This document shows, piece after piece, positions 18,054 through 59,547 of a stretch of DNA of 64,000 nt. The notes under the pieces were generated by a model that was not told the DNA's origin, searched no databases, and worked only from the letters and a program-made list of their open reading frames with translations. Every line of letters starts with the position of its first letter. Within the stretch, counting starts at the first letter, position 1. The position numbers were made by a program, and so were the translations under genes. The DNA comes from Candidatus Levyibacteriota bacterium (GTDB lineage: Bacteria > Patescibacteriota > Microgenomatia > Levybacterales > GWA1-39-11), in assembly GCA_039738415.1 (NCBI GenBank), contig JBCLLY010000002.1, positions 9,792 to 73,791 on the forward strand. The letters run 5' to 3'.

Positions 18054-18299
18054 ATGTGGTTCGTTTACATACTCGAGTGTTCCGACAGAACTCTCTTTAC
18101 AGGAATAATAACTAATGTTTTGCGGAGAATTAACGAGCATAATTTAAAAATTGGTGCGAAGTCTTTAAGAGGAAAGTTGCCCGTTAAACTAGTATATAAA
18201 GAATTGTATAATAGTCAAACCAAAGCCGCACAAAGAGAGCGAGAAATTAAAGGGTGGAGGCGAGAAAAGAAATTAAATTTAATTCAGGGTTTACCCTGA
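18054..18299 (+). CDS. GIY-YIG nuclease superfamily protein (UPF0213-like)
   Basis: 81 aa. WFVYILECSDRTLFTGIITNVLRRINEHN...REREIKGWRREKK. It lies between two tRNA genes. Confidence 0.8.
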   Translation: MWFVYILECSDRTLFTGIITNVLRRINEHNLKIGAKSLRGKLPVKLVYKELYNSQTKAAQREREIKGWRREKKLNLIQGLP

Positions 18300-18315: not shown

Positions 18316-18388
18316 GGGCGACTAGCTCAATTGGTAGAGCAATTCCCTCTTAAGGAATCGGTTCAGGGTCCGAGTCCCTGGTCGCTCA
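18316..18388 (+). tRNA. tRNA-Lys(CUU) with atypical T loop (TCCGAGT, C at position 55)
   Basis: Acceptor GGGCGAC/GTCGCTC, anticodon arm ATTCC CTCTTAA GGAAT, T arm CAGGG TCCGAGT CCCTG. Confidence 0.8.
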
Positions 18389-18504
18389 CACTTTAACAAT
18401 CTCAGTGTTTCACACTGAGATTGTTGGAGATTGGTCGGGACGAGGAGTTTATCCCGCTGAGCAAAGCGAAGGAACTGAAAGCGGGAAGTCCCTGGTCGCT
18501 CACA
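18373..18504 (+). repeat. direct repeat of the tRNA-Lys 3' end flanking a structured 96-nt spacer
   Basis: AGTCCCTGGTCGCTCACA occurs at 18373-18390 and again at 18487-18504. The spacer holds a perfect 14-bp hairpin (18395-18425) and the motif GGGAC GAGGAGTTTAT CCCGC...GCGGG. Confidence 0.85.
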
Positions 18505-31755: not shown

Positions 31756-31913
31756 ATCTACATAGCGGGCAAATCTATTCTTGTCAGCCAAGGCTGATCC
31801 GCCTCTGGCGGAAGCTACTAGAGCATATGTTATATTTTACCTAAAAAAAATGTAATTTGAAAGTTTTTAAAGCCTAGCAGTTTTTTTAATATGATGCCAA
31901 GTCGGACTCCTTG

Positions 31914-37223: not shown

Positions 37224-37281
37224 TGGACTCGAGGGGATTCGAACCCCTAATCTGTCCGACGTACATCGGGCCGCTCTATAC
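37224..37281 (-). pseudogene. 3' tRNA fragment (D-arm 3' strand to discriminator), degenerate anticodon arm
   Basis: The minus strand reads TATAGAGCG GCCCGATGTACGTCGGAC AGATT AGGGG TTCGAAT CCCCT CGAGTCC A. No matching 5' acceptor strand is present nearby. Confidence 0.5.
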
Positions 37282-37341
37282 TGTGGACCGGATCCCGCTT
37301 AGCGGGACAACCCCTCCATTTTCGCCCCCTAGATTTAACTG

Positions 37342-38693: not shown

Positions 38694-38885
38694 AAACTCT
38701 TAATATTTCATGGAGATGCGGATACTTTTATTACACCTGATAATAGTAGAAGGATTTTGGAGGCATCCTCAAGCGAAAGCAGACTGGTTCTTTTCCCCGG
38801 CTCAAAGCACGTCAAAACCTTTATAGACCATCCCAAGCTCTATACAGATGAGGTTCTACGGTACATGGAGCAGGAATTGAAGTAA
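38694..38885 (+). pseudogene. C-terminal remnant of an alpha/beta hydrolase
   Basis: The frame reads ...LLIFHGDADTFITPDNSRRILEASSSESRLVLFPGSKHVKTFIDHPKLYTDEVLRYMEQELK*. There is no start codon and no nucleophile-elbow region upstream. Confidence 0.5.
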
Positions 38886-38945
38886 GCAAAAAACAAATAG
38901 TATTGAAGCCTGATTTGAATTCGAGTAAAATACATAGACACCCAT

Positions 38946-39026
38946 GCCTGGGTGGTGGAATGGTATACACGCACGCCTTAAGAGCGTGTGGGGCAACTCA
39001 TGCGGGTTCGAGTCCCGCCCCAGGCA
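38946..39026 (+). tRNA. tRNA-Leu(UAA)
   Basis: Acceptor GCCTGGG/CCCAGGC, anticodon arm CACGC CTTAAGA GCGTG, long variable arm, T arm GCGGG TTCGAGT CCCGC. Confidence 0.85.
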
Positions 39027-39112
39027 CTTGAAATTCAATTGGGACGAGAAGTTTATCCTGCTGTGCCCGCCTCTGGAGGGAACGAAGTTGAAGGAAGTCC
39101 CGCCCCAGGCAC
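39011..39112 (+). repeat. direct repeat of the tRNA-Leu(UAA) 3' end flanking a 68-nt spacer with the GAGAAGTTTAT motif
   Basis: AGTCCCGCCCCAGGCAC occurs at 39011-39027 and again at 39096-39112. The spacer contains GGGAC GAGAAGTTTAT CCTGC (39041-39061). Confidence 0.85.
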
Positions 39113-39163
39113 ATGTCTATTTACTATTACCTACTACCTAATGTCTAATACCTATTCTCTAAA

Positions 39164-40105
39164 TTACTCGTGTTCGGGAGGTGTTTGCCCAAGTTCGATT
39201 AATGTATAGTCCAGCAAATCCTTCATTTCCTGCCGCCTGTTTTGACTATTTAAAAGAACTGCGATAACTTTTCTGTCATTGTACTCCAAGTATGTAATCA
39301 GACAAAAACCTGCTTCCCAAGTGAACCCTGTTTTGACACCTTTCACCCCCGGATAAGAAGTTAATAAATTTGTATCGTTGAATAATCTAAAATATTTGTG
39401 ATTATTTGAATAAGGCAATTCCTTTTCATAAGTTCCAACTACTTCTCTGAATGTAGGATTTTCCATAGCAATTCTTGTAAGCTTTAATAGGTCAACCGCT
39501 GTAGAGTATTGCTCTCCGTCTCCCTCAAGTCCGCTTGGATTTGTAAAATTAGTATCGGTTAAACCAAGTTGCTTGCCGCGTTTATTCATTTCATTAACAA
39601 ATCCGTCTCTTCCATAACGGCTTCCCTCGGCAATTACTTCAGCTGCATCATTTCCTGAAGGTAATAGCAGACCATACAATAATTCTTCCAAAGTAAACAC
39701 TTCACCTTCAGTTGCCCTCATCGCATTCTCACCAACCGCAGTTGCGCTTTTGCTTACTCTGTAACGTTTATCTACCCCTTCCTCAAGCGCAATTACCGCA
39801 GTCATAATTTTTGTAAGAGACGCCATGGGAAGTTTTTCTACAGAATTTTTTTCAAAAATTAACGTGTCGGTCGAAATATCGTAAGAAAGAGCAGCCTTTG
39901 CTGAAAGAATAATCTTTTTAGTAGAAGCACCTTCAACCTGAGCAACATTTGGAGTCCAAAGAGGGTAAAGAGGCGAGAGTTCTTCTTTAGTATCGGGCAC
40001 CGGTGAAATTATTGAGCTCAGCGATAAATTATTTTTGTTTAAAAAGAATTGAAGTAAGAATAATCCAACTGCCAATACAAATGCTGCAAATAGTCCTTTT
40101 GCCAT
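39164..40105 (-). CDS. D-alanyl-D-alanine carboxypeptidase (peptidase S11, PBP5-like)
   Basis: MASLTKIMT (SxxK), LPSGNDAA (SxN) and GVKTGFT (KTG) motifs, with an N-terminal anchor. Confidence 0.85.
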   Translation of the reverse strand: MAKGLFAAFVLAVGLFLLQFFLNKNNLSLSSIISPVPDTKEELSPLYPLWTPNVAQVEGASTKKIILSAKAALSYDISTDTLIFEKNSVEKLPMASLTKIMTAVIALEEGVDKRYRVSKSATAVGENAMRATEGEVFTLEELLYGLLLPSGNDAAEVIAEGSRYGRDGFVNEMNKRGKQLGLTDTNFTNPSGLEGDGEQYSTAVDLLKLTRIAMENPTFREVVGTYEKELPYSNNHKYFRLFNDTNLLTSYPGVKGVKTGFTWEAGFCLITYLEYNDRKVIAVLLNSQNRRQEMKDLLDYTLIELGQTPPEHE

Positions 40106-49393: not shown

Positions 49394-49522
49394 CGACTGA
49401 TTTAACAAAATCTTAAATTTCTCCGCCTGCTGCTGGACATGGATCCCCTTCGATTCGCTCAGGGTAAACGAACCGAGATAAACAGCTCCAAAGGCTATCC
49501 CGCCAATTTGTCTTTACCAGAG

Positions 49523-53187: not shown

Positions 53188-53381
53188 CACTTCGCTTCGT
53201 TCAGTGTAAACTGATTGAGTGAAAGCTTTGGTTTGTAAACTAAAGAATAATGAAGCTTGCTACTTTTAAAATTGCAACGCAATTTGTCATCCCTCCTAGG
53301 CGGGATGAAATGAGGAGAAATGACGAAGCGTAAAGGTTTTAAGCTCTGCTTAAAACCGCTAAGCGGAGTCCACTAGGACAC

Positions 53382-54331: not shown

Positions 54332-54498
54332 ACTTCTCGCCCTGCGCTATGTAGGGTGCAACAGCAAACACTAAGTTTATCGAAGTGTGGGCGCTAGAGG
54401 GCTCCCCGATGTTCATCGGGATAAACTTCTCGCCCTCAACTATGTAGGTTGCAACAGCAAACACTGAGTTTATCTAAAGTGTGGGCGCTAGAGGGCTC
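54332..54498 (-). repeat. two-copy tandem repeat (period about 93-94 nt) of the tRNA-Val(UAC) 3' end plus trailer
   Basis: Units 54332-54404 and 54425-54498 differ at about 7 positions. Each ends (tRNA sense: begins) with GAGCCCTCTAGCGCCCACACTT. They are separated by the hairpin CCCGATGAACATCGGG. Confidence 0.85.
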
Positions 54499-54554
54499 GA
54501 ACCCCTGACATTTTCGGTGTAAACGAAACGCTCTACCAGCTGAGCTAAGCGCCC
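54482..54554 (-). tRNA. tRNA-Val(UAC)
   Basis: Acceptor GGGCGCT/AGCGCCC, anticodon arm TTTCG TTTACAC CGAAA, T arm AGGGG TTCGAGC CCTCT. Confidence 0.85.
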
Positions 54555-54639
54555 GACGTCAAAATTAATTTCGCACGTTCGTTTATCGCAAAGCAATAAA
54601 CTTTTCACTCAATCAGTTTACACTGAACGAAGTGAAGTG

Positions 54640-59302: not shown

Positions 59303-59483
59303 GCGCGCATAGCTCAGTGGTAGAGTACTTCATTGACACCTGCCCGCTATGTACTTGGATCTATAGCTCAGTTGGTTAGAGCGTTGCATTGACATTGCAA
59401 AGGTCAGTGGTTCGAGTCCACTTAGATCCACAAGCAAGGCAGGCGGGTCGAAGGGGTCCATGGTTCAAACCCATGTGCGCGCA
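59303..59483 (+). tRNA. tRNA-Val(GAC) interrupted after the anticodon loop by a 109-nt insert (outer gene)
   Basis: The 5' half 59303-59339 and 3' half 59449-59483 share a 7/7 acceptor stem (GCGCGCA/TGCGCGC), an anticodon loop TTGACAC and a T arm CATGG TTCAAAC CCATG. Joined, they give 72 nt. Confidence 0.65.
59357..59430 (+). tRNA. tRNA-Val(GAC) (inner gene, complete)
   Basis: Acceptor GGATCTA/TAGATCC, anticodon arm TTGCA TTGACAT TGCAA, T arm AGTGG TTCGAGT CCACT. Confidence 0.85.
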
Positions 59484-59547
59484 CTACTCCAAGGTCATCC
59501 CGCTAAGGGGGATCAGGCGAGCATTTTTAATTTTTAATTATTCTTCA

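Follow-up and report, generated by a model that had tools for sequence, protein, structure and literature searches.

The 3' ends of tRNA genes are classic landing sites of mobile DNA, and the known actors there are integrases that bring kilobases of cargo. Islands and prophages integrated by tyrosine integrases, which use the stretch from the T-loop to the 3' end, leave behind an intact tRNA, an insert and a repeat reaching up to the tRNA 3' end; a terminator is often part of the insert, whose gain or loss spares the tRNA. Here, we describe a much smaller insert of similar outward appearance in a 64-kb stretch of DNA from a Candidatus Levyibacteriota bacterium (contig JBCLLY010000002.1; this whole stretch is referred to as the window). 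Behind tRNA-Leu(UAA), and behind 2 other tRNA genes of the window, lies a unit composed of a spacer (T), a conserved folded module (M) and an exact copy (c) of the last bases of the preceding tRNA. The unit may be likened to integron attC sites and to IS200/IS605 elements in its logic and to island att sites in its outcome, although the defining features of none of them are present.

At the Leu locus, the sequence AGTCCCGCCCCAGGCAC occurs twice as an exact 17-nt repeat, once within the tRNA gene and again at an offset of 85 nt (Table 1); the Rfam tRNA model matches 38946–39026 with 59.7 bits. The repeat runs from T-loop position 58 of the tRNA through the base after the discriminator (nt 58–74). 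The 68 nt between both copies consist of TTGAAATTCAATT, GGGAC, GAGAAGTTTAT, CCTGC...GAAGG and a single A, and GGGAC is complementary to GTCCC of the second copy. The hairpin of this module is GC-rich and a long, imperfect member of its family, with the CC/GG pairs at its base retained. The insert amounts to 72–85 bases and comprises the conserved folded module together with the last 17 bases of the tRNA in exact copy. An earlier reading of the window from the letters alone (the original prediction) had proposed that Leu is the second case of a recurrent module coupled to tRNA 3'-end duplication, and this was borne out: the repeat coordinates and the order of the spacer elements are as described, GGGAC and GTCCC are paired in the covariance-model alignment, the 11-nt core differs by one purine from that of the tRNA-Lys copy (GAGGAGTTTAT), and the window holds 3 such units. 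The Val unit, the spread over several phyla and the change of the GGGAC strand with the tRNA sequence are additions to that reading. The same source had called 2 open reading frames (ORFs) in this region (38944..39141, 65 aa; 38988..39209, 73 aa) artefacts. They exist mechanically, and since they overlie the tRNA gene and a module whose family members vary in length from 36 to 66 nt in steps that are not multiples of 3, it is reasonable to regard them as such. A coding explanation for the module is ruled out by these 1-nt length steps together with covarying helices.

Table 1. Coordinates of the tRNA-Leu(UAA) unit and of its 2 sister units in the window
Feature	Position	Strand	Basis and remarks
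tRNA-Leu(UAA) gene, 3' part ...GGTTCG followed by AGTCCCGCCCCAGGCAC	38946..39027	+	ARAGORN, Rfam tRNA, sequence; 39011-39027 is the first copy c
Leu spacer T, TTGAAATTCAATT, between tRNA and module	39028..39040	+	sequence; 13 nt, native trailer or part of the insert
Leu P1 5' strand GGGAC, pairs with GTCCC 39097-39101 (tRNA nt 59-63)	39041..39045	+	alignment to covariance model R1
Leu conserved unpaired segment J1/2, GAGAAGTTTAT	39046..39056	+	invariant or near-invariant columns of alignment A1
Leu P2, variable hairpin CCTGC...GAAGG	39057..39094	+	R1 alignment, family-wide P2 covariation, fold
Leu junction A (39095) and second copy c, AGTCCCGCCCCAGGCAC (39096-39112), which holds the P1 3' strand (39097-39101)	39095..39112	+	exact 17-nt repeat
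Sister unit after tRNA-Lys(CUU) (18316-18389)	18390..18503	+	sequence, repeat search, covariance model
Lys spacer T with 14-bp hairpin	18390..18436	+	
Lys GGGAC	18437..18441	+	
Lys GAGGAGTTTAT	18442..18452	+	
Lys P2	18453..18485	+	
Lys A	18486	+	
Lys tRNA copy AGTCCCTGGTCGCTCAC	18487..18503	+	
Sister unit after tRNA-Val(UAC) (54481-54554)	54332..54480	-	sequence, repeat search, covariance model
Val spacer	54480..54436	-	
Val GGGC	54435..54432	-	
Val GAGAAGTTTAT	54431..54421	-	
Val P2	54420..54405	-	
Val tRNA copy GAGCCCTCTAGCGCCCAC	54404..54387	-	18 nt
Val truncated module GGGCGAGAAGT	54342..54332	-	follows a diverged second spacer

An alignment of 43 modules (A1) was the basis of a two-helix test, alongside a covariance model (R1). 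In the first helix, P1, the first 5 bases of the module pair with nt 59–63 of the tRNA copy; the second, P2, is a hairpin. Overall, 90.6% of the cells were paired, none of 500 shuffles reached the observed values, and shifted registers collapsed. All 6 P2 pairs change on both sides, and in one module the base of P2 is swapped from CC/GG to GG/CC. P1 had been fixed by the search pattern, and its variants were recovered by R1 at other tRNAs of the same loci: GAGGC/GCCUC and GAGAC/GUCUC at tRNA-Trp and GGGU/ACCC at tRNA-Gly(UCC). Val in the window has GAGCCC in its T-loop and GGGC instead of GGGAC as its pairing strand (GGGC/GCCC). Since each of these variants comes with matching tRNA nt 59–63, the 5' strand of P1 follows the tRNA sequence. 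The unpaired GAGAAG next to P1 is invariant or nearly so (Lys has GAGGAG), the following 5 bases are UUUAU or CCUGU (GAGAAG-CCTGT), and the internal loop between P1 and P2 has 11 nt versus 1–2 nt.

P2 is the variable part of the module, with a length of 14–44 nt and lineage-typical forms, either CCCGAU-loop-AUCGGG or CCUGAGC...GUCGAAGG, the latter having tandem G.A pairs. The tRNA-sense (top) strand gives the more stable fold in 103 of 108 hairpins, with 105 G.A compared to 5 C.T. The loops of P2 are purine-rich and GNRA-like, of the type C-GNA-G; such loops and tandem G.A pairs also stabilise DNA hairpins. In some loci, P1 is extended by 3–8 bp to a minihelix-like stem. A minihelix formed by the flank together with the acceptor strand was rejected as a core feature, since the extension is in excess (mean 1.49 vs 0.79) but absent in 51 of 127 units. 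Searched with Rfam (release 15) at gathering scores, the whole window yields tRNAs only, and at E-values up to 10 the Leu module and a class-B example match no family, including self-cleaving ribozymes and tRNA-like RNAs; the best sub-threshold match on the module is the archaeal C/D sRNA sR60, with 12–15 bits against a gathering score of 50. The P2 of class-B modules, CCTGAGCGAAGTCGAAGG, is part of a high-copy inverted repeat, CCGTTCAGCCTGAGCGAAGTCGAAGGCCAC, which resembles repetitive extragenic palindromic (REP) sequences and occurs on Sphingomonas parapaucimobilis replicons at up to 23 places per replicon (L188, 1440–1530; L189, 1340–1530; L numbers denote loci from other genomes or contigs), where it is not tied to tRNA copies. 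L189 also has 4 tandem identical tRNA genes.

The covariance model recovers exactly 3 intact units in the window, those of Leu, Lys(CUU) and Val(UAC), with 47–49 bits. Each of the 3 good motif matches stands between a tRNA just 5' of it and an exact 17- to 18-nt copy of the 3' end of that tRNA. Both window tRNAs that have GAGTCCC at the T-loop/T-stem carry a unit; the other tRNAs of the window, Val(UAC) aside, do not. Decayed relatives of the unit are present after tRNA-Ala(GGC) and tRNA-Gln(UUG). The 16-mer motif has 3 matches in the window (up to 3 mismatches) versus 0.6 expected, a number reached by 3 of 100 shuffles, and the 13-mer motif has 7 versus 2.1 expected, reached by none of 100. 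On its own, the 16-mer count is weak evidence against chance. The question is settled by context, because each of the 3 good matches is 3' of a tRNA and comes with an exact copy, and because the same layout is found in at least 120 unrelated contigs; the doubt raised in the original prediction, that the core might fall within chance, is removed once other genomes are counted. Copying from Lys to Leu within this genome was considered and dismissed, as the similarity between the P2 hairpins is unexceptional (rank approximately 10 of 30).

To describe the family, we scanned one genome per species for GGGACGAGRAGTTTATCC, followed after a gap of 12–42 nt by AGTCCC. Judging from record titles, the carrier contigs among the matches listed are mostly Bacteroidota (Flavobacteriaceae, Bacteroidales, Chitinophagaceae, Prolixibacteraceae and others). 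They also include members of the Candidate Phyla Radiation (CPR; Peribacterales, Shapiro-, Roizman- and Curtissbacteria, Paceibacterota), as well as Neomarinimicrobiota/Marinimicrobia, Fidelibacterota, Verrucomicrobiota, Kiritimatiellia, Victivallales, Balneolia and some metagenome-assembled genomes (MAGs) of Gammaproteobacteria and Synechococcus, where the labels of single MAGs may be wrong. Approximately 120 of 145 modules (131 with upstream sequence) are located 8–70 nt, or array multiples thereof, 3' of an intact co-oriented tRNA, and each of these precedes a copy of the 3' end of its own tRNA, with more than 20 tRNA species represented. Identity between tRNA and copy most often extends over 17–19 nt (a sharp mode), corresponding to nt 58 to 74, and CCA is included only if encoded by the gene. 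Of 85 loci compared, 62 have sequence unrelated to the spacer behind the copy, and in the other 23 the spacer is duplicated too. Modules at different tRNAs of one genome share an idiosyncratic P2 (L032 with L049, and L075 with L104). No module was found in Escherichia coli genomes, and plasmids have neither a module nor a convincing match, merely P2-like sequence. Among 2.9 million viral contigs (IMG/VR), there were no exact matches to the 18-mer GGGACGAGAAGTTTATCC; a looser pattern gave 60 viral matches, all of them chance occurrences in coding sequence (DE(E/K)FI), so that identity with a phage attP was rejected. Searches of open-access literature with sequence strings and keywords returned nothing relevant on the module. 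The observation at Leu is real and concerns one member of a large, conserved and apparently undescribed family.

Comparison with relatives, reached via homologues of the neighbouring penicillin-binding protein (70%–73% identity), shows that the unit has been gained or lost. In the syntenic loci L121 and L124, both the order of genes and tRNA-Leu(UAA) are kept, but the unit is missing. Moreover, none of 16 metagenome contigs with a tRNA-Leu(UAA) of identical last 29 nt carries it, including 3 that look like Levybacteria relatives (L190, L194 and L205), and model R1 has no match in L121–127 or L190–209. The 85-nt unit at Leu, for which the original prediction had left open whether it is an indel, is an indel relative to related loci, being absent from both orthologous and identical-target tRNA-Leu loci. 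The alignment with L121 is ambiguous about spacer T (score 23 with T, 20 without). At Lys, the relative L206 has a tRNA-Lys(CUU) without the unit, and its own trailer and promoter (AAATTTTTATTATTGACA...) match the window sequence after 18503; the inserted block is therefore T, M and c, 114 nt in total, or, equivalently, copy, spacer and module entering at nt 57/58. Upstream of the Leu locus, the C-terminal approximately 60 codons of an alpha/beta hydrolase are all that remains between rarA and tRNA-Leu (38700–38885, + strand), in the place where L121 has a hydrolase gene of 297 aa.

Units also occur in tandem arrays of 2–7 (7 in L036, 4 in L108 and L119, and 3 in L033), and copy number differs among genomes that are approximately 90% identical. 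In the array of L036 (2354–3310), all 7 units are identical save for single-base differences in the last 2 spacers. A few loci have longer sequences between the tRNA and M-c. In L104, these are 1.5 kb with 3 genes and no integrase, and in L074 a 4.7-kb block with a large serine recombinase. Since L015 has the same tRNA-Pro as L074 with the module 47 nt away, the L074 island is probably a later insertion. Classical islands in L017 and L062 have their own attR repeat starting at T54/55 with no module beside it, and module-bearing units are found further downstream.

How does the unit compare to the systems named above? Applied as a test for an att scar, the Leu locus does have a direct repeat flanking an insert. 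However, there is no integrase gene and no kilobase-sized cargo or remnant thereof, as just 68 nt and 2 artefactual ORFs lie at the repeats, and the arm sequence was not found in free attP sites of phages or integrative and conjugative elements (no exact match in IMG/VR, no convincing plasmid match). Unlike tRNA-integrating islands, the insert is 58–137 bp without integrase or cargo, and one conserved hairpin module, absent from viral contigs, adjoins the repeat in over 20 different tRNA species; the tRNA–module distance holds with few exceptions across the 131 family members, and classical attR sites at the same loci lack the module. With integron attC sites, the unit shares an imperfect two-stem hairpin whose conserved spacer is unpaired and whose terminal structure varies, an outer stem (P1) that takes its second strand from the start of the following unit, as in R''/R' of attC, and arrays beside one fixed site. 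In contrast to attC, it lacks RYYYAAC/GTTRRRY boxes and reads GGGAC ... AGTCCC, its units are usually gene-less, the "attI" would have to be the tRNA T-arm, and, as far as the window ORFs examined and approximately 10 ORFs elsewhere go, it is accompanied by neither IntI nor attI.

The ends of IS200/IS605 elements, palindrome-associated transposable elements (PATEs) and REP sequences with their REP-associated tyrosine transposases (RAYTs) resemble the unit in having a strand-specific hairpin, a 5' sequence that pairs with the site beside the junction, a non-autonomous nature and a very small size, and the class-B P2 is itself a REP-like repeat of Sphingomonas. Those elements, however, insert beside a 4- to 5-nt motif genome-wide without target duplication, whereas at least 17 nt of tRNA are duplicated here and tRNA genes alone are targeted. 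Casposons and the repeat duplication of CRISPR likewise produce a long duplication of a defined segment, at a tRNA 3' end, and arrays that grow at one end. The target duplication of casposons is 14–15 bp. The unit differs from both in its duplication of at least 17 nt and the lack of terminal inverted repeats, of variable spacers, of any ORF and of casposase or cas genes. Arrays of CRISPR or guide RNAs, or of type III toxin–antitoxin systems, do not fit, given that the array units are near-identical and the downstream genes are unrelated host genes. Finally, M-c, like tRNA mimics (the tRNA-like domain of tmRNA, YrlA and viral tRNA-like structures), combines a helix of T-stem sequence with a following acceptor 3' strand that equals the one of a real tRNA; in most loci, however, the unit has no acceptor 5' strand, and it has no T-loop or D-arm mimic, adjoins the cognate tRNA gene and matches no Rfam family.

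We tentatively favour the reading that the unit is a non-autonomous insertion/duplication element directed to the tRNA T-loop, with the hairpin as a folded recombination site, and put this at somewhat under an even chance. Such an element would have the order c-T-M, where c is the copy of tRNA nt 58–74, T a short spacer often containing a terminator, and M the P1 5' strand followed by the unpaired GAGAAG-UUUAU segment and the variable hairpin P2. We infer that M acts at the DNA level, where it would form a recombination site by folding as a single strand; P1 would serve as a guide, pairing with nt 59–63 of the tRNA gene copy and bringing the end of M beside nt 57/58. Strand exchange at 57/58 could then insert or remove c-T-M while the tRNA stays intact, the displaced native 3' end would be left behind M, and repeated exchanges would generate tandem arrays. 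The enzyme would be encoded outside the unit; our guess is a host or trans-acting recombinase of the HUH or tyrosine type. This mechanism would explain why the boundaries are exact, why the tRNA is intact and why the native trailer stands behind the second copy, and also the terminator in many units, the arrays, the differences between relatives and the tuning of P1 to its target. Because a terminator-like hairpin precedes the module in 38 of 91 loci, M is often not on the tRNA transcript, and both c and a terminator come with the unit, as they do with integrative elements.

We count in favour of the element the gain or loss at Leu and Lys, the sharp identity over nt 58–74, P1 tracking its target, and the arrays with their copy-number differences. 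Further points are the strand asymmetry of P2, the REP-like class-B P2, the idiosyncratic P2 shared within genomes and the 3-gene locus L104. A bolder proposal, possible in our view but doubtful on balance, is that M is the recognition part of an undescribed class of base-pairing-directed, tRNA-T-loop-specific elements that duplicate nt 58–74 of tRNA genes and have spread or persisted across Bacteroidota, CPR and other phyla, either as a single-strand recombination site for an undescribed enzyme or as an RNA with joining activity.

Several observations weigh against a mobile element. The units have no linked recombinase, transposase or reverse transcriptase: the window contains one small GIY-YIG ORF and housekeeping genes such as uvrA, uvrB, rarA and gdh, which, with the source names of homologues, mark it as chromosomal DNA of a CPR bacterium near Candidatus Levybacteria, no integrase is present among the window ORFs examined or the approximately 10 ORFs scanned near long-distance cases at other loci, and no TnpA or RAYT was seen in the 64-kb window, the other carrier genomes not having been searched. 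No circular or excised form of the unit was observed either. Arrays often end in a module that is frequently truncated at a variable point and has no tRNA copy after it (L036, L097, L087, L033, L118 and, in the window, 54332–54342), and no copy was found further 3'. Simple T-loop integration does not predict such terminal modules, and they are explained by none of the models considered. In addition, a unit that carries its own c should stay on one tRNA species, which leaves the colonisation of new species and the re-tuning of P1 unexplained. At the same tRNA-Thr(UGU)–tRNA-Tyr position, M including P2 is kept across many Flavobacteriaceae genera with diverged spacers, which looks like long-term selection on a resident function. 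The counts of G.U (11) and A.C (10) in P2 are uninformative as a discriminator between RNA and DNA, and the survey behind the figure of at least 120 contigs is biased because the exact 18-mer plus AGTCCC was required.

The main rival, unlikely but serious, is that M-c is a functional structured RNA that mimics the 3' half of the neighbouring tRNA, with a T-stem-like P1, a free acceptor 3' strand, and GAGAAG-UUUAU plus P2 in place of the T-loop. Such an RNA, made by read-through or from its own promoter, would have arisen by local duplication and then been kept by selection, and might act as a decoy, sponge or guide, either for the 5' strand of the tRNA itself or for some factor by which tRNA 3' ends are recognised. 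It stays a serious rival because of the Flavobacteriaceae retention, within a Thr-Tyr-Gly-Thr tRNA cluster with diverged flanks, because the unit is nearly always co-oriented with and downstream of its tRNA, and because a terminator-like hairpin follows the copy in 49 of 91 loci, giving the layout of a small RNA (5' structure, single strand, terminator). The covariation of both helices, the way P1 strand and copy track tRNA changes across genera, the minihelix-like P1 extension of some loci and the GNRA-like loops all fit an RNA as well. However, a promoter for M-c is as yet hypothetical, terminators stand between tRNA and module in 38 of 91 loci, no Rfam family matches, close relatives live without the unit, and G.U is not in excess over A.C; tandem arrays of identical units, like decayed copies, would rather be expected of selfish DNA.

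The resemblance to island insertion also allows for a scar, in which an integrase-borne island or prophage in the tRNA 3' end has lost its cargo so that attL and attR adjoin and M is an attP arm. An intact tRNA, a short insert, a direct repeat and a native trailer are formally attL-attR, the repeat ends at the tRNA 3' end as integrase core sites do, and L074 has its serine recombinase. We nevertheless consider this improbable: the viral contigs lack the 18-mer, approximately 120 of the 131 modules with upstream sequence are within 70 nt of the tRNA or in arrays rather than at the far ends of islands, the attR repeats of L017 and L062 have a different start and no adjoining module, the L074 island looks later, and the module is one and the same at more than 20 tRNA species in several phyla, with P1 adapting to each. 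We know of no integrase arm sites that adapt to individual tRNA species. An origin via RNA is, in our estimation, decidedly improbable. Here, an M RNA would pair with nt 59–63 of the tRNA or pre-tRNA and be linked at 57/58 to the 3' fragment of the latter, through either ribozyme-like transesterification or template switching of a reverse transcriptase, before a DNA copy is placed beside the tRNA gene. The precise left boundary in the T-loop and right boundary at the tRNA end would suit this, as would the guide-like P1 pairing that adjoins the junction and, should T be native at Leu, an insert of M and c located 13 nt after the tRNA. Against it, T is part of the insert at Lys, the window shows no reverse transcriptase, the module fits no known ribozyme family, and the copies lack non-encoded CCA and, in arrays, run on into the gene's own trailer, so that the template must have been DNA or a precursor rather than mature tRNA. 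A chance repeat or one-off replication slippage without any shared element would find its best argument in the marginal 16-mer count. We give it hardly any credence, and it is ruled out by the identical 18-mer in the same tRNA context in at least 120 contigs elsewhere and by covariation; moreover, 3 units of the same architecture stand behind 3 different tRNAs of the window.

Several other tRNA loci of the window carry debris or shared flanking sequences. After tRNA-Ala(GGC), 37224–37340 (− strand) holds 2 partial 3'-end copies, one behind a degenerate module-like hairpin (GGGGGCGAAAATGG...CCCGCTAAGCGGG) and the other comprising the whole T-arm and a diverged acceptor strand; the tRNA-Ala locus of L121 is clean. 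After tRNA-Gln(UUG), 49429–49496 (− strand) is a decayed copy of Gln nt approximately 29–76 with a 24-nt T-loop insertion, TTTACCCTGAGCGAATCGAAGGGG, which is module-like from TTTAY onward and has real tRNA sequence in place of GGGACGAGAAG. A tRNA within a tRNA is present at 59303–59484 (+ strand): an intact tRNA-Val(GAC) (59357–59431), with short flanks able to pair (CCUGCCCGC with GCAGGCGGG), splits a second tRNA-Val(GAC) into 5' and 3' halves. The outer gene is broken in the anticodon loop at approximately nt 37/38, and its joined halves form a 73-nt tRNA-Val(GAC) according to ARAGORN. Conserved sequences common to several tRNA flanks are found at 54555–54638 (− strand), 53189–53260 (+ strand) and L121 7430–7497. 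The trailers of tRNA-Phe and tRNA-Leu(GAG) are alike (ACTTC.CTTCGTTCAGTGTAAACTGATTGAGTGAAA), a leader RAAGTTTAT-hairpin-AAACGAACG..GAAAT....TGACG.C stands directly 5' of tRNA-Val(UAC) and also before tRNA-Ala in L121, and the motif TGCCCGCTATGTA lies immediately 5' of tRNA-Arg(UCU) (31756–31775, − strand) and of the inner tRNA-Val(GAC) (59340–59356, + strand). The GIY-YIG ORF is a stand-alone nuclease domain of 81 aa between tRNA-Arg(UCG) and tRNA-Lys(CUU) (18054–18299, + strand); its last codons and stop, GGTTTACCCTGA, resemble GTTTATCCTGA of the module, and the same ORF end precedes tRNA-Lys in L206. As a general partner of the unit it was discarded, a similar order of ORF, tRNA and module being found in one other locus only (L066).

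A module of approximately 40 nt, with an unpaired core conserved at the level of single bases and a P1 that is re-tuned for each tRNA, thus marks tRNA genes in many phyla, including the tiny genomes of CPR bacteria. As a mobile element, it would be a minimal one with a guide-like choice of target and could lead to a recombinase activity that has gone unrecognised; as an RNA, it would represent a widespread new family of tRNA mimics. Either way, spurious ORFs and the tRNA debris near tRNA genes find their explanation in the module, which should be masked or annotated in pipelines and is a defined, testable structure.

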